Below, one piece after another: positions 5,513 through 42,982 of a stretch of DNA of 64,000 nt (positions are counted from its first letter, which is position 1; each line of letters opens with the position of its first letter). The notes beneath the pieces were generated by a model. It saw nothing but the letters and a program-made list of their open reading frames with translations. It was not told where the DNA came from and made no database searches. This stretch comes from an uncultured Gammaproteobacteria bacterium (GTDB lineage Bacteria; Patescibacteriota; Patescibacteriia; Magasanikbacterales; UBA922), in contig OZ246405.1 of the NCBI GenBank assembly GCA_965231005.1, positions 39,204 through 103,203 of the forward strand, given 5' to 3'. A program made the translations under genes and the position numbers.

Positions 5513-8055
5513 TTTTTTTCCATAACAACACCAAGCACCTGGTCTTCATGAAGCGTTGTAGTAAACAGTGCCCCATTTACAGCAAGCTGTATGTCACCCC
5601 GAGATCGCCAAACTGGCTGCCACCCATCTGGATACACAATTTGGGAATGAAATGCACTATTGATTCCTGACTGTTTTTGAATAAACAAACTATACCTGCT
5701 TCCATGCCGCTGAGCATCTCCAAAAAATATGTCTCTCCACTTTTCTTGTGTTGTTAACTCTGCTTCTTCTTGCTCCATTTTTACTTGCATTGGAAGTTTA
5801 TAAACAAATGTCACCTCACTTGTTTCTCCAGGAAGAACACTCATCCAATTTCCAAACGTTGTTTTGCCAAATTGTTCTGACACACGCGTACCACTTTGTG
5901 CATGGATTCCTTTTTCTTTTTCAAAATCAGCCAAATGTGGATCTTGTCTATACCATTCTTCTGGAACTTTAAAGACATCTTCTGGCGGATAGGTAAATCC
6001 ATTTGCATCAAGAAGTTCAGACCCTTTTGGAACATATACACGAATATAATCTATATTTGGTCCACCATAAAATTGTTCCCCTGCCACACCAGTGTGTGTT
6101 CGTTTTATATTCACTGTATTGATGATTGATCCATCGTCCATAACTTGTGCTTGGTGTGTAATATCTTGTTCAATTTTTGCATCTGACTTTTGACCACCAA
6201 TATTTGTATTCACAACCATAAGATAATCTTGTGTTGGTGCTGTTTCAACAATTTCACCTGTCCATCCAAAAGATCGAATTTCTTTTTGTAACTCATTATC
6301 AATAAACGATGCTTGTATTTCTTTTTGTTGTGCAGCAGTATGTATTTCTGACAAGAGCCGAATTGCAGAAACAGCATCAATTTCTTTCATTCCTTCAAGG
6401 AGTTGTTCAAGCATGCTTGCAACAACTGCTTTTGGTTTATTTTCTTCTTTATCATAATTCAATTCAACTTCTTCTTGAACTGTCTGAAGTACATTGTCTG
6501 CATCGACGAGCAAATCAAATTCTTCATTTTCCATAGGACCAACAACACGAAGGAATCGTTCTAAAACTGATGCATTAATTGCAATGACTCCATCGACGGT
6601 TGCTCCTCTACCATGCTGATAAAACCATGCCATTTTTTCTGCCGAAGCAGCAAAATCTGGAAACCAATTACTATCTTGAAATTCCCAACGTCCATTTACT
6701 ACTTGTAATGGCTCTGGTGGTTCTACAAATACATTGAGTTGCCCTTTGATATCGTATGTGCCTCCTCCTGGGACTTCAATATTCATAATTTTTCCTTTTT
6801 GAACATCAACAACAGCAAAGCTTCCTAAAAATCCACCAGTTGCACGAAGTTCATGATTGTTCTGGAACATAACAAGGTATCGCTTTAATCCGTCAGCACC
6901 GAAAACCTTATTAATAACATCGACAAGGTCTGCTAAGTCACCCATGTCACTAATAAACGCAGCAAATAATAATTTAAACTCTTCAAATGCATCCTGATAT
7001 TCTGTAGGAAGAGAAGATGATTCAACATGTTGGAGATCTTCAAGTGCAAGTCGGTATTGTGGGACAGAAGCTTGTAAATGATCTTGAATAATATTGAATC
7101 GATCGGTCATATTCAAATCATCATCTTCACTTGCAGCACTCACGCCTTTTACTAAATAGGTATTACCCAATGCCAAATGATGGCCAGCACTGAGTACATG
7201 TTGTCGAGACCGAACTTGTTTTCCAATAACAGGTAGCATACTTGCTACAAAGCCTAATATTTGATGTTCTTGATCGACAAAAGACTGCGCTTCATTGAAT
7301 GATCCAAGTGCACTATTCAAGTCAAATTGTGCTTGGGCAATATTTGCCTGAAGAGCAGCGAGTGTTGAAGACTGAAGAGAAAGAAACGCATTGGTGCTTT
7401 GCTCTACCAGTTCAGCACTGTCTTGTCGAACCTTTTTATAATATCCAAATGCAGGAAATGGTAGGCTTCCAATCAACACAAGAATAACAAAAGAGGCAAT
7501 AAAACGTCGAACAGTAAATCCTTGGACAAACTGTTGTGCTCGGTTGTCTACGGCATTGAATGCACCATTCCATTTTTGTTTTACAGATGAGGCAACAGTG
7601 CGATGAAATGTTATTCGACGTCGTGCTTTTTTTACAACAATACGATCGTCTCTTTGTAAAATTGGTTGAGATACCACTCCTTGTGTTTGTTGTTTTCTAA
7701 CCATATTTCGAAGCTGAACAACCTCTTGCTCAAGACGTTCGATTTTTGTTTTCTGATTTGCTTTGCGAACCATGCTTGCCAAATCAATTCCCTCTCGGAT
7801 TGGAGCAACTTTTTCATATGCTTCTCGAAATGCTTTTACGCGCTCTGGCGCGACCTTCTTTTCTGGGCGCAAATCAACAATATGTGGTGATTGTTTTTTA
7901 TCGTGGCAAACATGAACAACGACAGATGGTTTTGTCGTTCTTTTTTTCCTCTTTTTGACATGAGGAGTACTATTGAGCGATGCTCGTTTACATGTCCGTT
8001 TTGTGTGTCCAGGACGTCTGCAAACTGAGCATTTTCGCTGCTTTTTTTCTGCCAT
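5509..8055 (-). CDS. DUF4012 domain protein with N-terminal zinc-ribbon-like CxxC...C and one TM
   Basis: 848 aa; HNHELRATGGFLGSFAVVDV block characteristic of DUF4012; CSVCRRPGHTKRTC near the N-terminus; adjacent to the GT4 cluster. Confidence 0.6.
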   Translation of the reverse strand: MAEKKQRKCSVCRRPGHTKRTCKRASLNSTPHVKKRKKRTTKPSVVVHVCHDKKQSPHIVDLRPEKKVAPERVKAFREAYEKVAPIREGIDLASMVRKANQKTKIERLEQEVVQLRNMVRKQQTQGVVSQPILQRDDRIVVKKARRRITFHRTVASSVKQKWNGAFNAVDNRAQQFVQGFTVRRFIASFVILVLIGSLPFPAFGYYKKVRQDSAELVEQSTNAFLSLQSSTLAALQANIAQAQFDLNSALGSFNEAQSFVDQEHQILGFVASMLPVIGKQVRSRQHVLSAGHHLALGNTYLVKGVSAASEDDDLNMTDRFNIIQDHLQASVPQYRLALEDLQHVESSSLPTEYQDAFEEFKLLFAAFISDMGDLADLVDVINKVFGADGLKRYLVMFQNNHELRATGGFLGSFAVVDVQKGKIMNIEVPGGGTYDIKGQLNVFVEPPEPLQVVNGRWEFQDSNWFPDFAASAEKMAWFYQHGRGATVDGVIAINASVLERFLRVVGPMENEEFDLLVDADNVLQTVQEEVELNYDKEENKPKAVVASMLEQLLEGMKEIDAVSAIRLLSEIHTAAQQKEIQASFIDNELQKEIRSFGWTGEIVETAPTQDYLMVVNTNIGGQKSDAKIEQDITHQAQVMDDGSIINTVNIKRTHTGVAGEQFYGGPNIDYIRVYVPKGSELLDANGFTYPPEDVFKVPEEWYRQDPHLADFEKEKGIHAQSGTRVSEQFGKTTFGNWMSVLPGETSEVTFVYKLPMQVKMEQEEAELTTQEKWRDIFFGDAQRHGSRYSLFIQKQSGINSAFHSQIVYPDGWQPVWRSRGDIQLAVNGALFTTTLHEDQVLGVVMEKN

Positions 8056-8099: not shown

Positions 8100-8290
8100 A
8101 ATAGCAGAAGAATTGGGTATAAACCGACTGCATTCAACACACCTCTCATTCTGTCATTGCGAGGAATGAAGCGAAAGCGTAATGACGAAGCAATCTAGTG
8201 GGAACTGCTAGAAAAATTCCAATGAGATTGCTTCGTCGCCCTACTGCCTATCGGCAAGTAGGGCTTCTCGCAATGACAGGAATCTTTTAA
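8100..8290. other. nested-palindrome structured element (possible cis-regulatory RNA or REP-like DNA element) in the leader of the DUF4012 gene
   Basis: Perfect 13-bp inverted pairs CTGTCATTGCGAG/CTCGCAATGACAG and GACGAAGCAATCT/AGATTGCTTCGTC, plus an internal hairpin GCCCTACTTGCC-GATA-GGCAGTAGGGC. Locally GC-rich. Confidence 0.4.
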
Positions 8291-8322
8291 TAAAAAAACC
8301 TCCCCCTGCTAAAGGGGAGGTA
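8290..8322 (-). terminator. intrinsic terminator of the GT4 gene (CCTCCCC-TTTAGCA-GGGGGAGG stem then T7 on the minus strand)
   Basis: The reverse complement reads cctcccctttagcagggggaggttttttt. Confidence 0.55.
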
Positions 8323-8341
8323 GCCGAAGGCTGGAGGGGGT

Positions 8342-9466
8342 TTACTTTTTTACGAGAAACTCCGAATAAACATCCAACGTCTCCTCTGCCATCCTTTTCC
8401 ATGAATATCTTTTCAACTCTTCTACACCTTTTTGTTTTAGTTCAAAACGAATATCCTCGTCTACAAGCGCACGTTCAATTGCAGAAGCAAATTGTTCATG
8501 GTCTTCTGGATCAGCATACAGTGCAGCTTCACCTAAAATTTCTGGGAGGCATGTTCTGTTTGAAGAAACAACAGGAACGCCATGACTCATCGCTTCAAGC
8601 GGTGGCAATCCAAATCCTTCGTACAAACTTGGAAATGTATAAAGTGTTGCATGTTTATAAAGAGTTAACAATTCATCATCACTAACAAAATCCGTATAAA
8701 CAACATTGTTACATTGTTTTATTTCTTCACTTTTTAAAAGTTTTTCATAAAAATAATTTTTCTTTCCAACGAGCACAAGTTGATATTCATCTTCAAATGT
8801 TTTTTCAATAATTTTCCACGCATTTAACAAACCTTTTAAATTCTTGTGTGGAAACGCCACTCCAACATACAACACATACGGCTTGGCAATATTAAACTTT
8901 TTCAAAACAGAATTATTTGTATCTTGTGTCTTATGATTTAAGTAGGCTTCATATGTGACACTCATCTTATCAAGAGAAACATTAAGTGTTTTGTGCACAT
9001 CTTGTCTTGTAAACTCACTTGGCGTAAAAATATGTTTTGCTTTTTTTACTGCATGAGCAAGCACTACTTTGTATGCAATATATTTGAATGCATAACGAAA
9101 CCACCCAAGCGTGCTTGCTTCACGAGTTGGATAATGCATGAGCAACAAATCATGAACAGTGACAACAAATGGATCATTATAAAACAGAGGTACGTTCCAG
9201 TGTGGAAAATGCATCAAATCTATTTGTTCTTTTTTGAGAATGCGTAAAAATCTGAATTGTTCTTCCCATCCATACCAATGTATGTCTGCAAGAACTTTTC
9301 GAATCTTTGGATGTTCTGGGACAAGCTCCCAATTATCTTTTTTTAAAAATAAAACATACTCATCATCACCAGACAGTGTAATAAGATGATCAATGAGTTG
9401 TTGCGTATACCGACCCAATCCCCCACATTGAGGACCAAGCATTCGTGCGTCTATGCCGACTCTCAT
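8342..9466 (-). CDS. glycosyltransferase family 4
   Basis: EGFGLPPLEAMSHGVPVVSS motif of GT4/RfaB-like enzymes. Confidence 0.8.
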   Translation of the reverse strand: MRVGIDARMLGPQCGGLGRYTQQLIDHLITLSGDDEYVLFLKKDNWELVPEHPKIRKVLADIHWYGWEEQFRFLRILKKEQIDLMHFPHWNVPLFYNDPFVVTVHDLLLMHYPTREASTLGWFRYAFKYIAYKVVLAHAVKKAKHIFTPSEFTRQDVHKTLNVSLDKMSVTYEAYLNHKTQDTNNSVLKKFNIAKPYVLYVGVAFPHKNLKGLLNAWKIIEKTFEDEYQLVLVGKKNYFYEKLLKSEEIKQCNNVVYTDFVSDDELLTLYKHATLYTFPSLYEGFGLPPLEAMSHGVPVVSSNRTCLPEILGEAALYADPEDHEQFASAIERALVDEDIRFELKQKGVEELKRYSWKRMAEETLDVYSEFLVKK

Positions 9467-14267: not shown

Positions 14268-14672
14268 GTCTTGTTCATTACAGATGATCGATTTGGCCTC
14301 TGGCCAGATAGGAAAGTCCGAACTCTTCTCAATTTTATTGAGGTCGTGGAAGTGGGTAACACCCACCCACTGCATTGTGAAATGTATGTGAGGGACAGTG
14401 CCGCAGAGACAATACTAGTCCCGTCGCTCGTGAGCGACAGGACAAAAGGTGAAAAGTGTATAGAGGTTTTTGATCTCGAGTCAAAAGTTACTATACTCTA
14501 TCCTGTGGTGACACAGGTTAGTGGTAAACCCTTCCTAGAGAAAGAGCAGCGTTTTCCGTTTACGGGATTCGAAAAGTTAGCTCGTTACAGGTGTTTGGTA
14601 ACAAACATCGCAGAGAAATGATCATCACCCGCAAGGGTACAAAATTCGGCTTACGTAGTGGACAAGACAACA
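14268..14672 (+). ncRNA. rnpB: RNase P RNA (bacterial type A)
   Basis: P4 strands AGGAAAGTCCGAAC and ACAAAATTCGGCTTA show compensatory CCGAA/TTCGG changes relative to the E. coli GUCCGGGC/CCCGGCUUA. GGTAACACCCACC and CAGTGCCGCAGAGACAA match conserved RNase P blocks. P1 pairing GTCTTGTTCATTAC with GTAGTGGACAAGAC. Confidence 0.75.
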
Positions 14673-14675
14673 AAA

Positions 14676-14700
14676 AAACACCATGATTGGTGTTTTTTTG
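14676..14700 (+). terminator. intrinsic terminator of rnpB (AACACCA-tgat-TGGTGTT then T7)
   Basis: Hairpin and U-run read directly. Confidence 0.55.
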
Positions 14701-14781
14701 ATACCCTCCGAACTTCACAGTTGCGTAGCCCGAAGGGCACACATTTGTTTGGTTCGGAGTTTGTTCTCCTAGTTCTTGCAG

Positions 14782-15399
14782 CTAGGCTGCGGTGGGCTCG
14801 GACGCGACGTGGTCCTTGCAGACCGGGCAGGCTTCGTCGGTGTAGCCGTTGCTACTGCAGTGATTGCATCGGTCAAAGGTTCCTCCTCTGCTGTGCTTCT
14901 CCAGACCGCTACCACCACAGGGCTCGCACTTCTTTTTGCGGATGTTCTTGCATGCCATGCAATAAAGCTCGGCACTCACATGCTCTGCGCTGATGGTCCA
15001 GCCGTTTTTCTCGAGCCTTGCGACCACGGAGTGACGCGTCGAACACGTGTTCTTGTCGAGCATGCCATGATGACCGCCGTACGAGTAGCGCTGCATCTTG
15101 ATGGTTGCCATGTCCCAGGCAGACCTTTCAATATAGACCCTTGCCTCGAAGAAGATGTGGTACCGATCGCCATCACTGCCGGCATAGCCGAGGACGCACG
15201 AAAAGTTCCGCAGTTCTCCGTCTGGAGCACCATCGAAGTCAGGCCGACCCCACCAGGCCGCAAGACCGAAGTCTGCGTCGGTGTAGATCCTGCCGTGAAT
15301 CGCAGCGAACTCCTTGACTGCTGCGATCGCGATCGGGATCATTTGCAGACAAAAAGCCAGTCCTTGTGTGACTTTCAGGTCTTTTCCTTTCTTTGCCAT
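14782..15399 (-). CDS. hypothetical protein with C-terminal multi-CxxC zinc-ribbon region; strongly GC-atypical (~57-60% GC)
   Basis: The minus frame gives a non-repetitive protein with RBS gggggaaacaATG (start MAKKGKD). The opposite-strand ORF 14776-15456 is Ala/Val/Arg-rich low complexity typical of an antisense frame in GC-rich DNA. Confidence 0.45.
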   Translation of the reverse strand: MAKKGKDLKVTQGLAFCLQMIPIAIAAVKEFAAIHGRIYTDADFGLAAWWGRPDFDGAPDGELRNFSCVLGYAGSDGDRYHIFFEARVYIERSAWDMATIKMQRYSYGGHHGMLDKNTCSTRHSVVARLEKNGWTISAEHVSAELYCMACKNIRKKKCEPCGGSGLEKHSRGGTFDRCNHCSSNGYTDEACPVCKDHVASEPTAA

Positions 15400-16390: not shown

Positions 16391-16548
16391 ATTAAAATTT
16401 TGTTATTATTAAAATGTAGTGTAAAGCTTTTTCAAATAAAAGACAAATTTGAATTTAAGATCAAAAAAACTCGTCTTCGCCATAGGCTACGCCGAGTAAA
16501 CTCTTTCATTCGATAAATCCTCTTGTAGAGTTTACTTGGCGGAGTCCT

Positions 16549-16612
16549 GCCTGCCGGTCCGATGCGCAAGCGATACGGACTCCGTACCTTGCGTCGGAGC
16601 AGGCAGGCCGAA
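16549..16612. repeat. split or degenerate copy of the GC palindrome: CCTGCCTGCCGG + 41-bp imperfect palindrome + GCAGGCAGG
   Basis: Halves of CCTGCCTGCCGGCAGGCAGG separated by tccgatgcgcaagcgatacggactccgtaccttgcgtcgga. Confidence 0.45.
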
Positions 16613-16744
16613 GGACGTAGACAAGTTCTTTTGATCTATCCCGAGCCGCACAGTTGCAGAGCTTTCGTCCGGAGGGACGATCGTTGCAGGGTAGTACGAG
16701 TCGGGTGACAGGCATATATGACAAGAACATTTGAGGAGGGTATT

Positions 16745-17149
16745 CTAGGACAGCCTAGGCTTGAGTCCATTTGTAACAGCGATCCGAAACAGATCTGCAC
16801 GAGTACTAACACCCAGACGTCTACTGATCTCCCTTGAATGTGATTCGACTGTCCGGTGGCTCACACCAAGAATTTCTCCTACTTCGCCACACGTATGACC
16901 ACTAATGATCCATGACAAAACTTCGAGCTGTCGTTTTGTCAGAGACTTGAGAGGACCTCTAGCAACAATCTGTGACATAGGACCTGAAGCAGGCTGAACT
17001 ACTCTGCTGGCGAACCTGAGTGACACACCACCAGATCTATTTCTTGAAACCTCAATTGAGAGAATAACCTTCTGACCTTCTTCCGGAATATCCAGCTCAA
17101 AGGAGTCAGCAGCGACTTTCACAGAAATTGTCTTTGTTTTAGGAGCCAT
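16745..17149 (-). CDS. LuxR/GerE-family HTH transcriptional regulator
   Basis: C-terminal LTKRQLEVLSWIISGHTCGEVGEILGVSHRTVESHSREISRRLGV is a LuxR-type HTH; GC ~50%. Confidence 0.7.
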   Translation of the reverse strand: MAPKTKTISVKVAADSFELDIPEEGQKVILSIEVSRNRSGGVSLRFASRVVQPASGPMSQIVARGPLKSLTKRQLEVLSWIISGHTCGEVGEILGVSHRTVESHSREISRRLGVSTRADLFRIAVTNGLKPRLS

Positions 17150-17205
17150 GCTACCTCCTTGTTCTTGTGTAGCCTGTTTATATCAGCAAACGCTTAGTTT
17201 GTCAA

Positions 17206-17239: not shown

Positions 17240-17328
17240 TGCTCAGGAGAGGACTTGAACCTCCACAGGAAAAAATTCCCACAAGGCCCTCAACCTTGCG
17301 CGCCTGCCTGCCGGCAGGCAGGTCTACC
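17240..17328 (-). pseudogene. 3' portion of a degenerate tRNA-Leu(GAG) paralog (D-loop GGTAGAC to acceptor end), interrupted by the 20-bp GC palindrome
   Basis: Minus strand reads GGTAGAC-[CCTGCCTGCCGGCAGGCAGG]-CGCGC AAGG TTGAGGG CCTTG ... GGAGGTTCAAGTCCTCTCC TGAGCA. The T-arm and anticodon loop are identical to the intact tRNA-Leu at 18199-18285. Confidence 0.5.
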
Positions 17329-17574
17329 AAATCTGTTTAATAAAGTTATTTTTATCCATTCCTTCCCTGATCCAGACTTTAGATATTTCTCCCGTTTTCT
17401 AGCTTCAATTCTTGTCGAATATTTTTCGTAATATATCAAAAGAAAAGGTCTGTAAAAACGTGTCACTCTTTCTTTTCCACGCTCATGTTCTAAAACCCGT
17501 CGCTCAAGGTCATTCGTTAGACCAACATAAATATAATTCTTTTGAAGACTTTTTAATACATACACATGGTACAT
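17290..17574 (-). CDS. GIY-YIG nuclease family protein
   Basis: YVYVLKS...YIYVGLTNDLERRVLEH GIY-YIG motif. The last ~8 codons (PACRQAGAQG) are encoded by the GC palindrome and tRNA fragment. Confidence 0.7.
   Translation of the reverse strand: MYHVYVLKSLQKNYIYVGLTNDLERRVLEHERGKERVTRFYRPFLLIYYEKYSTRIEARKREKYLKSGSGKEWIKITLLNRFGRPACRQAGAQG
17303..17322. repeat. perfect 20-bp palindrome CCTGCCTGCCGGCAGGCAGG (copy 1)
   Basis: Exact self-complementary 20-mer. Identical copies at 18312-18331 and 52500-52519. Confidence 0.8.
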
Positions 17575-18197: not shown

Positions 18198-18198
18198 G

Positions 18199-18285
18199 TG
18201 CGCAGGAGAGGACTTGAACCTCCACCCTGTATAACCAGGACCAGGCCCTCAACCTGGCGCGTCTACCGATTCCGCCACCTGCGCG
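18199..18285 (-). tRNA. tRNA-Leu (anticodon GAG), class II with long variable arm
   Basis: The minus strand reads GCGCAGG TG GCGG AATCGGTAGA CGCG CCAGG TTGAGGG CCTGG TCCTGGTTATACAGGGT GGAGG TTCAAGT CCTCT CCTGCGC A. All four stems pair. No encoded CCA. Confidence 0.85.
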
Positions 18286-25712: not shown

Positions 25713-28391
25713 TTATTTTTTTAATGTATTGAGTTGTTGTTCTAATTTTTCAAATTTATCTTTTGCATCTGCTAATTTTCTTTTTTCTGCATTAACAACA
25801 GATTCTGGTGCACTTTTTGTAAATCCTTTGTTACTCAACTTTCCTTCTAAACTTTTTACAAATGGTGCAACCTTTTTCATTTCTTTTTCAATACGCGCTG
25901 TTTCTTTTGCAATATCTACTGTCCCCTTTAGATCAATAAATACTTCAATACCTTTTTCAACAAAACCTACAAGTCCATCTTTATCTTTTATTTTTTTCTT
26001 TATATCAATGTCTTGAACGCGAGCCAATCCTTGAACAATATGTTGATTATCTTTCACAATATCTTCATCATCTCCTGTAACAATAATATCAATCTTTTTT
26101 CCAGCCTCAATTCCATATTCATTTCTAAGTGAACGAATGCCCACGACAATATTTTGAATTGCATCAAATCCATGAGTAGGATATACCATTGCTTGCGCTG
26201 GCCATTTTTCTACCATAAGGAATTCTTCCTTCCCATAAACTTCTTGCCAAATCGCTTCTGTAACAAATGGCATAAACGGATGCCAAAGTTTTAATACATT
26301 GTTCAATATATAATTAAGTATATCACTTTTCTTCCCTTCTATCTTTGCAATTTCCAAATACCAATCAGCAAGTTCATTCCAAGTGAAATCACGAAGTTTT
26401 TCTCCAGCAAGTGACAAACGAAATTCTTGAATATCATCGCTTACTTGATCTATCAAATCATGAAGGCGAGAAAGAATCCACTTATCTGCAAGTGTCTTTC
26501 CTTCTGGTTCTTTTATATCAATAACAGGTTTATCAATGTTGAGCAATGTAAATCGTGAAATGTTCCAAAGTTTATTTGTAAAATTTCTAAAACTTGCAAT
26601 CTTTTCTTCACTGAGTCGAGAGTCATTTCCTGGTGTTGCGCCAATAATTAATGAAAGTCGGACAGCATCGGTTCCAAATTTTTCTGAAACATCGAGTGGG
26701 TCAATAATATTATCAAGTGACTTACTCATTTTTCTTCCTTTTTCATCCCGAACCAGTCCATGAAGATACACTGTTTCAAATGGAATTTGTCCACGAAGAT
26801 ATGTGGTCATTAAAATCATTCGGACCACCCAAAACGTTAAAATATCATATCCTGTTTCAAGAACACTTGTTGGGTGATAGTTAGCTAAATCATGTTCAGG
26901 ACCTAATTCTCCTTTTTTAGGATTTTCCTGGACGGGCCAGCCCATCGGAGAAAAACTAAACATGCCAGCACTAAACCATGTATCAAGCGTATCTGGATCT
27001 TGTTCCCATCCTTCCCCTTCTGGTGGTTCTATACCAACATACACCTCCTTGTCTTTATACCAAGCAGGAACTCTATGTCCAAACCAGAGCTGTCGAGACA
27101 AACACCAATCTAATAAATTATCAACCCATTGAAAATAAGATTTTTCAAAACGTGCTGGCAAAATCGTAATATGTTTTTTCCGGACAACATGTTGCAAAAT
27201 AGATTGAATACTAACTTCTTCGCCTTTTTTGATTCCTTCAATCTCTGAATGTGGCATTTTAAATGTTTGTTTTACATTCAGCCACCACTGTTTCATAATT
27301 TGCGGTTCAATCACACCACCACCACGACTGTTTGTTGCAAGCTGATGTTTGTAGTTTTCATCAACTCTGTTAAGCAATCCCTTTTTATCTAATTTTTTTA
27401 CAATCTTTTTTCTTGCCTCTTCAATATGCATGCCAGCAAACTCTCCTGCAATTGGTAAAAGCTTTCCATCAAAATCAATCACTTGTTCTTTATCCAAATC
27501 CCAACGTTCTGCAATAAAAAAGTCAGTCGTATCATGCCATGGCGTAATTGTCATAACTCCAGACCCAAATTCTGGATCTGCTGCCTCATCCTTTATAACA
27601 GTTGCAATAATTGGACCATTGATCCATTCACATTCAAACGTATCTCCATGTTTGTAATCAGCGTACCTATCATCATCTGGATGCATAACAACATATTTGT
27701 CACCAAACTTTGTTTCAGGACGAGATGTACCAATTTCAAATGGTCCGTATTGAAAATAATAAAACGGTGCTTGTTCTTCTTTTCTTACCACTTCAACATT
27801 TGAAACATTCGATTGCATTTTTGGATCCCAATTTACGATTCTATCTCCTCTATAAATGAGGCCAGCATCATACATTGTTTTAAATGCAGTACGAACTGCA
27901 AGATTTAAATTCTCATCAAGAGAATAATATTCTCTTGACCAATCCATTGATGTTCCCATTTTTTTCGCTTGCTTCACAATTCTGTCATGACTGTTCTGTG
28001 CAAACTCTTCTACACGACGTAAAAATTTTTCCCTTCCTAAATCATGTCGAGTCTTTTTTTCTTCATCCCACAATATTCTTTCAACTTTTTCCTGTGTTGC
28101 AATTGCCGCATGATCTGTTCCTGGAACCCACAATGTTCTATCGCCTTTCATTCGATGATAACGAATCATAACATCTTCAACTGCAAGCATCACTGCATGA
28201 CCAATGTGAAGTGTTCCTGTAACATTTGGTGGCGGAAGAACAATTGAAAACGGCTCTGCATTTTTATCTGTCCCCCCTTTTTCAATACAAACATCTGGAT
28301 TAAAAAATCCGCTTTCTTCCCAGCGTTTGTAAATATCATCTTCGTATTGTTTTGGTTCGTATGCCTTTGAAAGTTCTTTTTTATTTGCCAT
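25713..28391 (-). CDS. valS: valine--tRNA ligase
   Basis: PPPNVTGTLHIGHA, KMSKSLDN, editing domain, C-terminal coiled coil; 892 aa. Confidence 0.9.
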   Translation of the reverse strand: MANKKELSKAYEPKQYEDDIYKRWEESGFFNPDVCIEKGGTDKNAEPFSIVLPPPNVTGTLHIGHAVMLAVEDVMIRYHRMKGDRTLWVPGTDHAAIATQEKVERILWDEEKKTRHDLGREKFLRRVEEFAQNSHDRIVKQAKKMGTSMDWSREYYSLDENLNLAVRTAFKTMYDAGLIYRGDRIVNWDPKMQSNVSNVEVVRKEEQAPFYYFQYGPFEIGTSRPETKFGDKYVVMHPDDDRYADYKHGDTFECEWINGPIIATVIKDEAADPEFGSGVMTITPWHDTTDFFIAERWDLDKEQVIDFDGKLLPIAGEFAGMHIEEARKKIVKKLDKKGLLNRVDENYKHQLATNSRGGGVIEPQIMKQWWLNVKQTFKMPHSEIEGIKKGEEVSIQSILQHVVRKKHITILPARFEKSYFQWVDNLLDWCLSRQLWFGHRVPAWYKDKEVYVGIEPPEGEGWEQDPDTLDTWFSAGMFSFSPMGWPVQENPKKGELGPEHDLANYHPTSVLETGYDILTFWVVRMILMTTYLRGQIPFETVYLHGLVRDEKGRKMSKSLDNIIDPLDVSEKFGTDAVRLSLIIGATPGNDSRLSEEKIASFRNFTNKLWNISRFTLLNIDKPVIDIKEPEGKTLADKWILSRLHDLIDQVSDDIQEFRLSLAGEKLRDFTWNELADWYLEIAKIEGKKSDILNYILNNVLKLWHPFMPFVTEAIWQEVYGKEEFLMVEKWPAQAMVYPTHGFDAIQNIVVGIRSLRNEYGIEAGKKIDIIVTGDDEDIVKDNQHIVQGLARVQDIDIKKKIKDKDGLVGFVEKGIEVFIDLKGTVDIAKETARIEKEMKKVAPFVKSLEGKLSNKGFTKSAPESVVNAEKRKLADAKDKFEKLEQQLNTLKK

Positions 28392-28647
28392 ATTTCTTAG
28401 TCCACCATTTTTTTATAAAAGGAATAGAAAGTGTTGAAAGATACCACCCTACAGCTGGGACAAGTGCTGTGCGCCACGCATCTGCACTTTCAATCATAAT
28501 AAGCCAGACAGCTGCAATAAGATATGTAAGAACAAAAATGGTTACCTTGCGAAATCCACTTGTTTCCCAGGCCTTATCTGCTTCAACTTTTTTATTTCTT
28601 CCTTCAATTTTTTCTACCCTTTGTTCAAGGTTAATATTGTCTTTCAT
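28381..28647 (-). CDS. small membrane protein (88 aa), overlaps the valS start by 11 nt
   Basis: Two predicted TM helices; operon position. Confidence 0.4.
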   Translation of the reverse strand: MKDNINLEQRVEKIEGRNKKVEADKAWETSGFRKVTIFVLTYLIAAVWLIMIESADAWRTALVPAVGWYLSTLSIPFIKKWWTKKYGK

Positions 28648-28697: not shown

Positions 28698-28758
28698 AAA
28701 GAAAAGGCGAAAAAGCTAAAAGGCGAAAAAGCTAAAAATTCTGAAAATGCTCTAAATT
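28698..28758. repeat. 9-bp periodic array (AAAAGGCGA AAAAGCTA AAAGGCGA AAAAGCTA AAAATTCTG AAAATGCTCT), reverse orientation
   Basis: Tandem units of the AAAGCCTTT-family read on the complementary strand. Confidence 0.55.
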
Positions 28759-28821
28759 AAGTCAAAATCTCCCTAAAATTGATCTTTCTTTAGTGGACAA
28801 TCCACTGTGGGTATACAATGA

Positions 28822-28850
28822 TTGACAAAATTCGGCTGAGTTGATACAAT
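28822..28850 (+). promoter_or_regulatory. sigma70-like promoter TTGACA-17nt-TACAAT driving the GC-rich 4-gene cassette
   Basis: ttgacaaaattcggctgagttgatacaat. Confidence 0.45.
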
Positions 28851-28899
28851 AATTAACTTCCTAAACCTAGGAAGCCAAACGAACAACAAGGGGGTAACC

Positions 28900-29211
28900 A
28901 TGTCGCTCATTCGAAAGGCAAGCATCACGTGTTTGGGCGCATTAACTTGCGTCTCAGCTGCCGTAATCCTCAACTCGCTTTTGGCTCTGGTCTTGATTGG
29001 CTTTTTGCCCATGATCCCATTCGCGTACGGTTTGGCCAAGAAAAAGCCATACTTGACTTTTTTGGGCCTGGGCGGAATGATCGGCATTTCCCTGCTGCAT
29101 TTGAGTGTGCACTTGGAAATCCATCCATCACAGATCATTGAGACACTTTTCTTTGCTCAGGTTGCAGCTGTAGTTCTCTGGGTGATCGAGAAGGTCCGGG
29201 AGGACAAATGA
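28900..29211 (+). CDS. small membrane protein (cassette gene 1)
   Basis: RBS AAGGGGGT 5 nt before the ATG; 2-3 TM helices; GC ~50% vs ~33% background. Confidence 0.5.
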   Translation: MSLIRKASITCLGALTCVSAAVILNSLLALVLIGFLPMIPFAYGLAKKKPYLTFLGLGGMIGISLLHLSVHLEIHPSQIIETLFFAQVAAVVLWVIEKVREDK

Positions 29212-29525
29212 GCATTCGCAAAAAAGCCAAATGGTTAGTCGCGCTGCCGTTTCGTGTTGCAAGGGGCATTGTTCGACTCAACTTGGCAGCAGTAGACGCT
29301 GCAGCCGAGATATGGCTTGACCTTCGCGAGTCAGATACGACAAACGCATACCAGGTATACCGCCAAATCGTACGGCTGGAAGATCCTGTTGAAGCACTTT
29401 GTCGCTCACAGAACATTGACCACCAAACCGCAAGTGTTCTGTGGCACCAACTGGTCACTGAATTCCACCCCGATCCGAAAAGATATTGGGAACTTTACCC
29501 AGACGAGCAGCCAGATCTGAACTGA
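29208..29525 (+). CDS. hypothetical protein (cassette gene 2)
   Basis: ATGA stop/start overlap with gene 1; RBS GGGAGGA. Confidence 0.45.
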   Translation: MSIRKKAKWLVALPFRVARGIVRLNLAAVDAAAEIWLDLRESDTTNAYQVYRQIVRLEDPVEALCRSQNIDHQTASVLWHQLVTEFHPDPKRYWELYPDEQPDLN

Positions 29526-29621
29526 ATGAGACAACACACAAAAAAGGAGGAGCTCCCTGCTACCACGCGGGGTCTCACATAGGTACAGTTAATAAAAGTG
29601 TATCTGTGTGAGGAGGACACA

Positions 29622-29927
29622 ATGATCACATTCACAAAGCTCTTTTTGTACATGTGCACAGGTGCGTTCCTCGGAAGTGCCTTGTACATATTTGGGATGG
29701 ACACAAATACCATCTCAATGATTGCTGCGTTCTACCTTTTCATGGGAATCGTAGTATATCGTGGGAATCTGTTAGGATGCGGCATAGGCACTGCCTTCTC
29801 AAGCATTCTCTTGACAGACAAACACTCACCCAAAACCATTGCCATGTACGCTTTCATCATGCTGCTGGCAACACTCGTCTGGATGACCATGACGAGACAA
29901 ACAGAACGACAAAGGGGGGAACCATGA
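29622..29927 (+). CDS. small membrane protein (cassette gene 3)
   Basis: RBS GAGGAGGA before the ATG at 29622 (internal Met of track ORF 29598-29927); 3 TM helices. Confidence 0.45.
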   Translation: MITFTKLFLYMCTGAFLGSALYIFGMDTNTISMIAAFYLFMGIVVYRGNLLGCGIGTAFSSILLTDKHSPKTIAMYAFIMLLATLVWMTMTRQTERQRGEP

Positions 29928-30295
29928 CTTTTCTCGAGGTGCTCGGCATCATTACTGTCATCATGACCATTACGTACGGAGCAATCTGGTTCAAGCTCAT
30001 TCCGTGGGTAGAGAAACCAAAAGGCCCAGTTGAATTTCTGGCATACCCACCACGTCTGCCAGGAGATATCTTCGGGATGATCGTGTTTGGCATGATTTCA
30101 AGAGATTGGCTACACGTACTGTTTCTATTGCCGCTGCTCTTGCTCTCGCTCGTCCCTGCACTTGTCGTGATGGTGATAGGAGTTGTTTCACTCTTCCTGA
30201 TCATCATCTTCTGGTTCACCATCGATTTCGTATCGTACTACGGAGTCGTATTCATTGACTGGGTTGCACGGGCGTGGAGTTCGTGGAGAAAATAA
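29924..30295 (+). CDS. small membrane protein (cassette gene 4)
   Basis: RBS AAGGGGGG before the ATG at 29924; ATGA overlap with gene 3. This is the in-frame C-terminal 123 aa of track ORF 29654-30295. 4 TM helices. Confidence 0.5.
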   Translation: MTFLEVLGIITVIMTITYGAIWFKLIPWVEKPKGPVEFLAYPPRLPGDIFGMIVFGMISRDWLHVLFLLPLLLLSLVPALVVMVIGVVSLFLIIIFWFTIDFVSYYGVVFIDWVARAWSSWRK

Positions 30296-30395
30296 TAAAC
30301 AACAAAGGCGCAACAACAAGGGGGTTTGTCCTGACACTGTCGGGACTCACCATCAACGTATATATAATTGTGCGTTCATGGTGGGAAGAACAATA

Positions 30396-30486
30396 TTAGT
30401 TACTAGATAATAGTTAATAGACAACTAGGCTGGAAACTTCTTACAAAGCACAATAAATAATAACTATTAGCTAATAGCTAATAAAC
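30396..30486. repeat. inverted pair TTAGTTACTAGATAATAGTTAATAGACAA ... ATAACTATTAGCTAATAGCTAATAAACT (inner arm of the TIR element family)
   Basis: 29/30 identity to 35252-35281; read directly. Confidence 0.55.
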
Positions 30487-30487
30487 T

Positions 30488-31642
30488 ATGGCCCTTAATG
30501 TAAATGAACAAATCAAAAAACTAATTGACGATAAGAAGCATGTCCTTATTACATTTAGTCCAAAAGGAAAAGGCGATGCACTTGCTAGTGCAGTTGCGCT
30601 ATCTTTGTATTTGAAAAAACTTGGAAAACGAGTGGACATTGTATCAGACGGATTTGTTCTTCCCCGTCAATATAAATTTTTGAAAGGATCAGAAACAATT
30701 GCATCTTCATTTTCACATTTACAAAAATTTATTATTACGATTGATGCAAAAGATGCTGGTGTCCAGGAATTAAGTTATGATGTAAAAGATGGAAAACTTC
30801 GCATTTTTGTAACACCGAAAAAAGGATTCTTTACAAAAGAAAAATTGCGCACTGCACAATCTGATTTTAAATATGATTTGATTGTTACGCTCAACACGCA
30901 GGACTTAGAATCACTTGGCTCACTCTATGACAACAATGTAGAACTCTTTTACAAAGTTCCAATTATTAATATTGATCACAATCCTAGCAATGAACATTTT
31001 GGTCAAGTAAATCTTGCGGATTTAACAACAACGACAACAGCAGAAGTTATCTTCAACATGATTAACAAAATAAATCCTGAAACGATTGATGAACATATTG
31101 CAACAGCACTTCTTACAGCGATTGTTGCAAAGACACGTAGCTTTAAGTCAGACAATATAAAACCACATACATTACATCTTGCAAGCAAGTTAATCACACT
31201 TGGTGCTGATCGTGATTTTATTGTTAAAAATCTTTTTCACACAAGATCAATTGCTGCATTAAAATTGTGGGGGCAAGCACTCACAAATTTGAATAGTGAT
31301 CCTGATATTGGACTTGTTCATACTTCAATAACTCGTGATGATTTAACAAGAACTGCTGCAGAAAAAGATGACATTCCAGATATTATTGATGAATTAATTA
31401 GTAATTCACCAGAAGCAAAATTAACATTGCTCTTATTTGAAGATCCTGAAAAGACAACTCCATACACTGTGCATGGTATGCTTGTGACAGATCGCGGATA
31501 CAATGCACTTCAATTGTTAAAAGAATATAACCCAGTTGGAAGTATTAATTACGCATCATTTGTTATTACAGATGTTCCAATGCAAGTTGCAATAAAAAAT
31601 ATCCGCGAACAATTGCGGAGTCAGCTTATAAAAAATGTCTAA
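30488..31642 (+). CDS. DHH-family phosphoesterase (NrnA-like nanoRNase / pAp phosphatase)
   Basis: INIDHNPSNEHFG DHH motif and C-terminal DHHA1-like region. Confidence 0.65.
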   Translation: MALNVNEQIKKLIDDKKHVLITFSPKGKGDALASAVALSLYLKKLGKRVDIVSDGFVLPRQYKFLKGSETIASSFSHLQKFIITIDAKDAGVQELSYDVKDGKLRIFVTPKKGFFTKEKLRTAQSDFKYDLIVTLNTQDLESLGSLYDNNVELFYKVPIINIDHNPSNEHFGQVNLADLTTTTTAEVIFNMINKINPETIDEHIATALLTAIVAKTRSFKSDNIKPHTLHLASKLITLGADRDFIVKNLFHTRSIAALKLWGQALTNLNSDPDIGLVHTSITRDDLTRTAAEKDDIPDIIDELISNSPEAKLTLLLFEDPEKTTPYTVHGMLVTDRGYNALQLLKEYNPVGSINYASFVITDVPMQVAIKNIREQLRSQLIKNV

Positions 31643-41556: not shown

Positions 41557-41685
41557 TAATATTCATATTAACTATAACCTCATTATACACCAAAAAAAGA
41601 GGTGATTGACAATAAAAATTAGCAATGCAATAATGAAAAAGCACTGGGGAATTCTGCCTCAGCAGCCACATCAAGGAGCAACATC

Positions 41686-41934
41686 ATGAGCACAGACGGA
41701 CTTGGCGTTTCATTCAACATCAACAAAACAGTCTGGTTCAAGCCCACAGAGCGCGGGTTGGCTGTGATGAGAGAAACCGTGCATGCTCAAAGGGCAGCAA
41801 AGGTAACTCAGAGGAAGCCATGGTGCAGTCTCAACTTTTGCGTCTTCGCAAAGATCTTCGGCCCACACTTGGGCTCTGGCTACTCGATGGTGTACGATGG
41901 CCAAATCCTTCTGACTGAGCCACCAAGGAACTAG
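41686..41934 (+). CDS. hypothetical small protein in a GC-rich (~52%) mini-island
   Basis: Strong RBS AAGGAGcaacatcATG; followed by the hairpin GGAAAGTC-acac-GACTTTCC plus a T-rich run. The opposite-strand ORF 41710-42006 was rejected. Confidence 0.4.
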   Translation: MSTDGLGVSFNINKTVWFKPTERGLAVMRETVHAQRAAKVTQRKPWCSLNFCVFAKIFGPHLGSGYSMVYDGQILLTEPPRN

Positions 41935-41977
41935 CGCAGCCGCACACTTCACAAACCGAATAAGGGGGACGGGAAAG

Positions 41978-42982
41978 TCACACGACTTTCCTTTCTTCTT
42001 TTCCAATCCTTGTCATCCACTCCTGCTTAAAATACTCTCTTCTATCATTGTCATGAAATTTTAACATTTCATCACTAACAATCACATCTGTTTTGTGAGA
42101 GTCAAAATCAATATTCTTTTCTTTTAATTTTTTCAATTGAATATTCCTCAACATTCTTTCTAGTGAATCTCCAATGCTTCCACTGAGCAATGTTTCAAAA
42201 ACTCGTTGAAAGGTATTTGTAAAAACATTGTGTGAAACCTTCCACAAACCAAGCGGATTAAATGCTTCTGATGTATTTGGAAGATACTTTTTTGTCCAAG
42301 CATTTTTCTCTTTTATGACTTGCGAAACATTTGACGGATCAAAAACAGGAATAAGTTGTTCAAGCCAATATGTTAGATAAATATCAGGCTGCTCAATTGC
42401 AACAGAAGAGAGATCAAGATGACTTTCTCCTGCATAAAAACTAAGACAAATTTTATCTTTACTTTGTAAGGTTGTAATGCGTAATTTAAAAAAATGAAAA
42501 AGTAAAATAATAAAAAAACGAGCAAACCACATACGTCCATCTTTTATAACAATAAATGTATCAATATCACTCTCCTCTTTTGTTGAAATAGTGAACTGGT
42601 TGCAAACAAAAAATGCACGAACAAATGGAATAAACCGGATGATCTTTGCTGCACGCTTTGCAATCTTCATTTTTCGACGTAACAGCGAAGGCATGGATTT
42701 ACGGTTTTGAATCGTAGAACTTTGTTGAGGCAAAAAATAAAAACTTTCTTGTCTTTCAATTCTTCCAGACAACACCTCACTATCGAGCATATCCAAAAAA
42801 GCAACATACGAAATTTCCTGATTGCTACCCCACTGCCACTCGTAAAGCTCTTGGGCAGTCAATGGATAATCAAATATGCCAAAGTAAGCAATTGTTTTTG
42901 TAATTGATTCACTCATAGTATCTATAGTGTAACCCAGATCGGTTGTTATGTCACCTATAAAAAAACAACTAACAATTAACAA
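41978..42982 (-). CDS. hypothetical protein
   Basis: 334-aa ORF; possible true start at MSESITK (42913); no motif recognised. Confidence 0.4.
   Translation of the reverse strand: MLIVSCFFIGDITTDLGYTIDTMSESITKTIAYFGIFDYPLTAQELYEWQWGSNQEISYVAFLDMLDSEVLSGRIERQESFYFLPQQSSTIQNRKSMPSLLRRKMKIAKRAAKIIRFIPFVRAFFVCNQFTISTKEESDIDTFIVIKDGRMWFARFFIILLFHFFKLRITTLQSKDKICLSFYAGESHLDLSSVAIEQPDIYLTYWLEQLIPVFDPSNVSQVIKEKNAWTKKYLPNTSEAFNPLGLWKVSHNVFTNTFQRVFETLLSGSIGDSLERMLRNIQLKKLKEKNIDFDSHKTDVIVSDEMLKFHDNDRREYFKQEWMTRIGKEERKVV

Follow-up and report, generated by a model that had tools for sequence, protein, structure and literature searches.

A GC-rich four-gene segment of putative foreign origin behind the promoter of a DHH phosphoesterase gene in a Magasanikbacteria-like genome

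We analyzed a 64,000-nucleotide stretch of contig OZ246405.1 (hereafter the window), part of a 1.23-Mb genome of the candidate phyla radiation (CPR, or Patescibacteria) whose valyl-tRNA synthetase (ValRS) was 71% identical to those of metagenome-assembled genomes of Ca. Magasanikbacteria. Between the ValRS gene and the gene of a DHH-family phosphoesterase (DHH) lies a GC-rich segment with four small open reading frames (ORFs) on the plus strand, named here P1 to P4 and collectively the cassette (Table 1). Our results favor, with a probability of about 0.7, the view that the segment is a foreign ORFan operon captured behind the host DHH promoter at an insertion hotspot that extends over the clade. 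A sequence-only reading of the window had described a recently acquired mobile cassette flanked by a 14-bp direct repeat. A recent foreign acquisition agrees with the composition, the GC content at third codon positions (GC3), the Shine-Dalgarno (SD) sequences, the absence from relatives and the ORFan status of the genes, but the repeat does not appear to be a boundary and no mobility machinery was found in the 64 kb (see below).

The interval 28860-30345 is the 1.5-kb stretch with the highest GC content in the window (48.5% vs 36.7% in the remainder; z ~4); the earlier estimate of about 50% fits the interval, but that of about 33% for the background was slightly low. The four plus-strand ORFs fill this interval, P1 and P2 as well as P3 and P4 being joined by ATGA start/stop overlaps, and in none of 2000 dinucleotide shuffles of the region was such ORF coverage matched. 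Base composition differed among codon positions in each of the four ORFs (p = 0.01 to 2e-7), with T at the second position reaching 0.40-0.52 in the three hydrophobic proteins of the cassette. Coordinates, overlaps, shuffles and codon-position bias all agree with the four tightly packed or overlapping plus-strand genes first described, and the unusually strong SD ascribed to each of them is present 3-5 nt before each ATG.

ORFs were also found on the minus strand opposite the cassette (121, 107, 72 and 121 aa), with products rich in Ser, Thr, Arg and Pro and devoid of hydrophobic segments. These long ORFs look like antisense junk and the plus-strand reading is the coherent one, because of its ORF coverage, its codon-position bias and the transmembrane (TM) segments with charged termini of its predicted products. 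Public gene callers chose here a minus-strand 121-aa ORF and a 213-aa fusion, i.e., an alternative frame joined to P4; P1 and P3 as read on the plus strand are uncalled in the public annotation and missing from the protein collection. Such disagreement, the contigs that break inside the region in some assemblies and the general experience that GC-rich islands in AT-rich genomes are often RNAs would suit a segment that holds no genes at all, being instead a GC-rich structured non-coding RNA, inert junk with accidental ORFs or an assembly chimera. We consider this extremely improbable, given the shuffles and the codon-position bias in all four ORFs, the correctly spaced SD before each ATG and the ATGA overlaps, which fit translational coupling. 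A search of Rfam over the cassette at a permissive threshold (E up to 1) yielded noise only. The junctions of the cassette were identical in the window and in two separate ENA assemblies, and contigs L001 and L002 were identical to the window locus (L numbers denote the related loci or contigs compared, and W the window); a chimera was rejected because the locus is identical in two independent assemblies. Short-read assemblies of the same population (L002, L136, L137, L138 and L141) break in or near the cassette, at about W positions 29179, 29637-29661, 29785 and 30450. Exact look-ups of DHH and p88 (Table 1) in the same samples for an empty-site variant turned up the occupied locus, or contigs that break within it, and nothing else.

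The segment looks horizontally acquired, because it combines deviating composition, a GC3 of 0.49-0.62 in P1-P4 against 0.16-0.26 in host genes (ValRS, DHH, DUF4015 and GroEL), SD-led genes in an SD-poor host, absence from relatives at a conserved site, and ORFan status; codon usage sides with the sequence-only reading. Among ORFs of 150 aa or more, 2 of the 42 with native composition have any SD-like motif at -20 to -4; a separate listing made by hand yielded similarly few SD-bearing ORFs, one of them a GC-rich island gene, and the native genes of related genomes (L003-L092) are likewise essentially without SD. All ORFs of GC-rich islands that start inside the window have a strong SD, namely P1-P4, 14782-15399 (-), 16745-17149 (-) and 41686-41934 (+), the Cys-rich ORF of a fifth island (1-459) having its start outside. 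Across the 64 kb, the presence of an SD effectively marks foreign genes. The left limit of the foreign segment was placed where homology with the related locus L004 ends, and the right limit at a step in GC content from 0.47 (30326-30385) to 0.25 (30386-30487).

The site of the segment is defined by its neighbors. A divergent ValRS(-)/DHH(+) pair is kept in dozens of related loci, the two start codons being separated by ~100-270 bp in most of them and by 2096 bp in the window; DHH, immediately downstream of the cassette, is a plus-strand gene, so that the surrounding genes are not all on the minus strand as had been stated. P1-P4 are absent from 80 related loci at this conserved site (tblastn gave no match). 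The TTGACA-17-TACAAT promoter, which had been taken as belonging to the cassette, is there (11/12 positions matched, TG extension), but by sequence comparison it is the native promoter of DHH, since TTGACA-17-TAnnnT precedes DHH in 29 related loci, whether occupied or empty, and since W and its nearest relative L004 can be aligned from the ValRS side through the promoter up to AATT[A/C]ACTTCC past the -10 and diverge thereafter. The distance from the -10 to the DHH start is 7-92 nt in 20 loci without insert, and that from promoter to DHH 393-1637 nt in nine loci (W, L004, L078, L083, L084, L018, L003, L087 and L092). The extra DNA in these nine occupied loci is GC-rich and small ORFs were identified in eight of them. 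Because nine loci carry different, unrelated GC-rich inserts behind the same promoter, the 5' untranslated region (5'UTR) of DHH is, as judged from these alignments, a recurrent insertion hotspot in the clade; roughly one in three of the sampled related genomes has an insert there.

The occupants of the slot in different genomes showed no similarity to each other or to P1-P4, and several relatives carry small TM proteins there. This last observation would fit P1-P4 being native, lineage-specific and fast-evolving genes in a slot that the clade keeps upstream of DHH for small membrane proteins, as would the fact that no donor was found for any island gene, a LuxR-type island gene of the window also being without close homologue. 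We hold this very unlikely: GC3 is about three times the host value, the occupants lack sequence similarity, the slot is empty in most relatives, and the use of SD contrasts with that of native genes.

Other features of the site were recorded around the promoter. Hairpins analogous to the stem-loop at the predicted transcript start (Table 1) are visible by eye in L004 and L078. A palindrome, GTGGACAATCCAC, lies at 28794-28806 just upstream of the DHH promoter, and in its place, upstream of the -35, many relatives have TTATCCACA, which resembles a DnaA box; GC skew gave no origin-like turn near the palindrome, which may be an operator. The AT-rich spacer between p88 and the promoter contains a perfect 16-nt tandem duplication, AAAAGGCGAAAAAGCT, at 28702-28733, and an imperfect inverted repeat of 26 nt (30394-30419 and 30458-30483) lies in what remains of the DHH 5'UTR.

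As had been reported, the window holds two exact copies of the 14-mer AACAACAAGGGGGT, one at 28882-28895, where it provides the ribosome binding site of P1, and one at 30312-30325, past the last stop. Allowing up to 2 mismatches, three matches were found vs 0.48 expected, a number reached in none of 100 shuffles; the window thus held no further exact copy and a single near-copy with 2 mismatches (17153-17166), which serves as leader to the LuxR-type gene of a different GC-rich island. The 14-mer is part of a longer leader with an A/C-rich tract and GGGGG, present in three copies. Copies 1 and 2, serving P1 and P4, were identical at 27 of 32 positions including AACCATG (score reached in 0 of 2000 shuffles), whereas copy 1 matched copy 3 up to GGGGGT (9 of 2000 shuffles). 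Copy 3 is an orphan that neither an ORF nor a suitably spaced start codon follows. Ahead of the left 14-mer, the sequence (CAAACGAAC) matches the internal leader copy; since cassette-like sequence continues upstream of it, the 14-mer is not at the junction. As deduced from these alignments, the 14-mer is part of a three-copy translation leader within the cargo, and not a mobility scar or a duplicated target. A similarity between the P2-P3 spacer and the 3' flank, which would have suggested a repeated cassette-end element, was not significant (304 of 2000 shuffles). The 17-mer leader gave 11 single matches in IMG/VR, close to chance by our own rough estimate.

The hairpin that had been noticed after the second 14-mer is real: a stem GTCCTGACA/TGTCGGGAC with one G-U pair was found at 30328-30346 and is followed by a second stem-loop at 30346-30385. 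Together they fold at -31.5 kcal/mol in RNAfold (z = -3.8) but, lacking a U-tract, they are probably not a terminator. Between P4 and DHH we found no plus-strand promoter-like site and no reported terminator.

Repeats on both sides of a gene block are what a discrete mobile cassette would show if the 14-mer were its ends, i.e., a target-site duplication or an att core, and if it were moved, possibly in trans and in an integron-like fashion, by a transposase or site-specific recombinase. The exact repeat is not expected by chance, SD-type repeats likewise stand on both sides of the inserts of L004 and L078, and the site, proximal to a promoter like attI, is used recurrently. We nonetheless regard this reading as quite unlikely, for the repeat is a leader, of which a further copy stands ahead of the internal gene P4 and a near-copy in a second island, and foreign DNA extends beyond its left copy. 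Terminal inverted repeats at the ends of the segment did not rise above shuffles, and attC cores (GTTRRRY/RYYYAAC) were absent from both strands of 28820-28905, 29520-29625 and 30290-30490, in a test by core motif and inspection only. Neither integrases (Phage_integrase included) or other recombinases, nor transposases, nor phage genes were present among ~45 ORFs across the window, the neighbors of the cassette being ValRS, a small TM protein, DHH, DUF4015, MFS and others. The empty sites of relatives lack the 14-mer, and the nine occupied loci share no junction sequence at their insertion points.

The hallmarks of transposons, insertion sequences and miniature inverted-repeat elements, namely inverted repeats, a transposase in the window and a host-derived junction duplication, were thus not found. 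Integron gene cassettes are closer: they too are promoterless small ORFs, mostly of unknown function, behind a fixed promoter, with variable content and short repeats bracketing the cargo. At this locus, the only strong plus-strand promoter predicted is that of DHH. Unlike integron cassettes, however, the segment has no attC structure or cores, no IntI was found in the 64 kb, its genes overlap instead of forming one ORF per cassette, and the nine loci have no common junction. A search of the literature on integrons in CPR returned nothing relevant. The cassette also resembles genomic islets, which have atypical GC content and codon use, are absent from relatives at the syntenic site, encode small ORFan membrane proteins and vary in cargo by lineage; it differs from them in having no tRNA or integrase anchor, in its position inside a 5'UTR behind a conserved promoter, and in carrying SD-using cargo in an SD-poor host. 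By itself, the cassette is probably an ordinary foreign island, an islet of small size acquired horizontally.

The four proteins appear to form two translationally coupled pairs, with three small polytopic membrane proteins and one five-helix protein. Hydropathy made P1, P3 and P4 polytopic, as the sequence-only reading had suspected of most of the products. An in-in topology of P1 agrees with its basic N-terminus, its KKK loop and its charged C-terminus. A single-sequence AlphaFold2 model of P2 had a mean predicted local distance difference test (pLDDT) score of 76, ~90 for residues 50-100, and a disordered N-terminus; its fold search gave no significant match (E >= 0.65 in BFVD, with several weak matches to DUF732 phage proteins), and phmmer against the PDB gave only E above 1. 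An FHPD motif had suggested that P2 could be a J-domain protein, which was rejected as neither a Pfam DnaJ match nor a fold match was found. The model of P4 consisted of helices only, one implausibly long, and was left out of the fold search.

Homology searches with these proteins were largely negative. In a word-indexed search of 5.8 billion cluster representatives, P2 and a concatenate of P1, P3 and P4 returned the query locus only, and an exhaustive HMMER search of P2 against 1.84 billion 50%-identity representatives returned itself and one spurious eukaryotic repeat protein. Pfam, PHROGs, NCBIfam and PADLOC had no family for P1-P4 apart from a borderline PHROG match of P3 (phrog_8599, unknown function, E = 8e-4); the PADLOC models of anti-phage defence gave zero matches at E up to 1. 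No relative of P2 or P4 was present in IMG/VR, and the cassette DNA had no match among phages (INPHARED) or plasmids (PLSDB).

These results bear on whether the segment is a phage remnant, i.e., a lysis or holin-antiholin module, or a moron, whose membrane proteins would be holins or superinfection-exclusion proteins. With such systems the cassette shares small membrane proteins, compact coupled genes under uniform strong leaders, deviant composition and ORFan status; P1 and P3 have the generic size, several TM segments and charged C-termini of holins, P3 has its PHROG match, and the weak, non-significant matches of P2 fall repeatedly on DUF732 phage proteins. It differs from them in having no prophage context, no promoter and terminator of its own, and no significant match in sequence or structure to phage proteins. 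No endolysin or other phage gene was found nearby and no holin family matched P1-P4, and the insert is richer in GC than the host, unlike most phages. We consider a phage remnant unlikely. Toxin-antitoxin or abortive-infection modules with membrane effectors offer another likeness, with two bicistronic ATGA-overlap pairs, small size and a variable hotspot; unlike them, P1-P4 gave no PADLOC, Pfam or NCBIfam match and have no recognizable toxin or antitoxin fold, and pair 2 consists of two membrane proteins. Considering the two coupled pairs, the small size, the membrane location and the hotspot of fast turnover, our guess, held with low confidence, is that P1-P4 could be an accessory exclusion, immunity or toxin-type module.

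Capture of a foreign operon behind the DHH promoter, the reading we prefer, may have proceeded as follows. About 1.5 kb of DNA (roughly 28862-30385) would have come from a source of ~50% GC that uses SD, and would have entered the DHH 5'UTR a few bases past the point where the native promoter starts transcription. The leader (A/C-rich tract plus GGGGG) would have been brought in by the foreign DNA, and orphan copy 3 would most simply be the leader of the next gene, cut off or lost. The host promoter would transcribe P1-P4 and read through into DHH, as suggested by there being no terminator and no second promoter between them. Most likely, the site is used recurrently because promoterless DNA that lands behind the DHH promoter gets expressed and harms nothing.

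Several points weigh against this reading. No donor or homologue was found, so that the foreign origin is derived from composition, translation signals and absence from relatives and not from a phylogeny; the nearest sampled relative is only ~70% identical in ValRS and DHH, so that the time of insertion and the exact junctions are approximate. Mobile elements are usually AT-richer than their hosts; with its high GC content the insert is not what one would expect from a resident phage or plasmid, but this does not point to any particular donor. Expression of P1-P4 in this host is a prediction from sequence, and their proposed function a conjecture. The cassette may have to be translated in a host that possibly lacks the anti-SD; this motif went undetected in about half of Parcubacteria (PMC9297842). 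Finally, the inserts of L004 and L078 likewise have, past their last ORF, an orphan leader of SD type (in L004 a 12-nt repeat, AGGAGGGCTCAA), and orphan leaders in three inserts exceed what simple random truncation predicts.

Note that L003, L004, L078 and L087 all have the form AGGAGGGC[C/T] at the hotspot. Owing to the recurring orphan leaders, leader-mediated capture stays a minority reading. According to it, Magasanikbacteria-like CPR would have a promoter-proximal gene-capture site resembling an integron platform, without a known integrase or attC, at which SD-led ORFan cassettes are repeatedly inserted, and perhaps exchanged, behind the DHH promoter, with the A/C-rich plus SD leader as recombination substrate. 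Such a leader stands in W, L004 and L078 ahead of the first ORF and, as an orphan copy, past the final one; exchange would take place by Campbell-type integration of excised circles through short homology or by an unrecognized recombinase acting in trans. We give this possibility a slim chance.

Table 1 Predicted features of the four-gene segment and its flanks (window coordinates)
Feature	Position	Strand	Description
Foreign segment	28862-30385	+	Putative, ~1.5 kb; boundaries inferred and approximate
P1	28900-29211	+	103 aa, polytopic membrane protein; 3 segments above hydropathy threshold, ~4 TM by inspection
P2	29208-29525	+	105 aa; basic, partly hydrophobic N-terminus, then five-helix domain
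P3	29622-29927	+	101 aa, polytopic membrane protein; 2 segments above hydropathy threshold, ~4 TM by inspection; Arg-rich C-terminus
P4	29924-30295	+	123 aa, polytopic membrane protein; 3-4 TM by inspection
P1 SD			AAGGGGG, 5 nt to ATG
P2 SD			GGGAGGA, 3 nt to ATG
P3 SD	29610-29617		GAGGAGGA, 4 nt to ATG
P4 SD			AAGGGGGG, 5 nt to ATG
Leader copy 1	28873-28902	+	A/C-rich tract, GGGGG, AACCATG; contains the 14-mer; serves P1
Leader copy 2	29895-29926	+	Inside the 3' end of P3; serves P4
Leader copy 3	30303-30325	+	Orphan after P4; contains the 14-mer
P2-P3 spacer	29526-29621	+	96 nt; SD-like GGAGGAG at 29546-29552 precedes no ORF; holds the P3 SD GAGGAGGA
Sigma-70-type promoter	28822-28850	+	TTGACA-17-TACAAT; 11/12 positions matched, TG extension
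5' stem-loop	28857-28874	+	CTTCCTA-AACC-TAGGAAG at the transcript start; RNAfold z only -1.6; 5' arm within the part conserved with L004
DHH 5'UTR remainder	30386-30487	+	Native-like, AT-rich, 25% GC
DHH-family phosphoesterase	30488-31642	+	Pfam DHH, E = 1.2e-8; weak NCBIfam NrnA match; in line with the cassette
p88	28381-28647	-	88 aa, native composition, one TM segment; no family match; homologues adjoin ValRS in L005 and L018
ValRS	25713-28391	-	Left anchor of the conserved divergent ValRS/DHH pair; Pfam annotation of L001 and L002

Other GC-rich islands were observed in the window. The one at 14782-15399 (-) has 57% GC and adjoins the RNase P RNA gene; its product is a Cys-rich ORFan of 205 aa with 11 Cys and, close to the C-terminus, CxxC pairs. 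The gene has the SD GGGGGAAACAATG and a promoter-like TTGACA upstream, and its product gave no family matches. The LuxR-type gene at 16745-17149 (-) encodes a 134-aa protein with a GerE/LuxR-type helix-turn-helix; its leader ACAAGAACAAGGAGGTAGCATG resembles that of the cassette, and a search of the protein collection with its product returned only itself, with no close homologue. A 94-aa GIY-YIG nuclease-domain protein (17290-17574, -; SD AAGGAGT) is encoded between this island and tRNA-Leu (18198-18284). At 41606-41990 (+), a small GC-rich unit among minus-strand genes has a TTGACA-17-AATAAT promoter, the SD CAAGGAGC, an 82-aa ORFan (41686-41934) and, past the stop, a AAGGGGGAC motif followed by a hairpin with a T-run. 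At the window start (1-459, +), a GC-rich gene is cut so that only its 3' end is present; it encodes a Cys-rich repeat protein with repeated C..DC..C units.

A conserved GC-rich non-coding element was present 3' of three of these islands: after the Cys-rich ORF (455-680, +), after the LuxR-type ORF (16455-16750, -) and, as a partial copy, after the 205-aa ORF (14654-14782, -). It has the core CCCTCCGGACGAA..GCAACTGTGCGGCTCGGG..ATCAAAAGAAC, and its two full copies end in GTTTTTTTGATC. A 291-nt copy folds at -119 kcal/mol (z = -7.5). The element had no Rfam match and no copy in the related loci or in the four-gene cassette; possibly, it accompanies the islands as a structured RNA or a complex bidirectional terminator. 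In the distant relative L116, three GC-rich small-ORF units with a GC3 of 0.85-0.90 (6240-6470, 8140-8361 and 8931-9164), two of them paralogous, are each followed by the same hairpin CCCCCGAGCAC..CTCGGGGG, a further example of GC-rich mini-cassettes repeated within a CPR genome.

For the genomics of uncultured CPR bacteria, the parts of wider, if moderate, interest are the 5'UTR hotspot, the recurring orphan leaders and the dichotomy in SD use between native and island genes. The presence of an SD would serve as a simple marker, independent of composition, for foreign genes in these genomes, and it raises the question of how SD-led genes get translated in such hosts. Since standard gene callers mis-annotate the region, choosing the wrong strand and fusing ORFs, small proteins of this kind are missing from the public protein sets.

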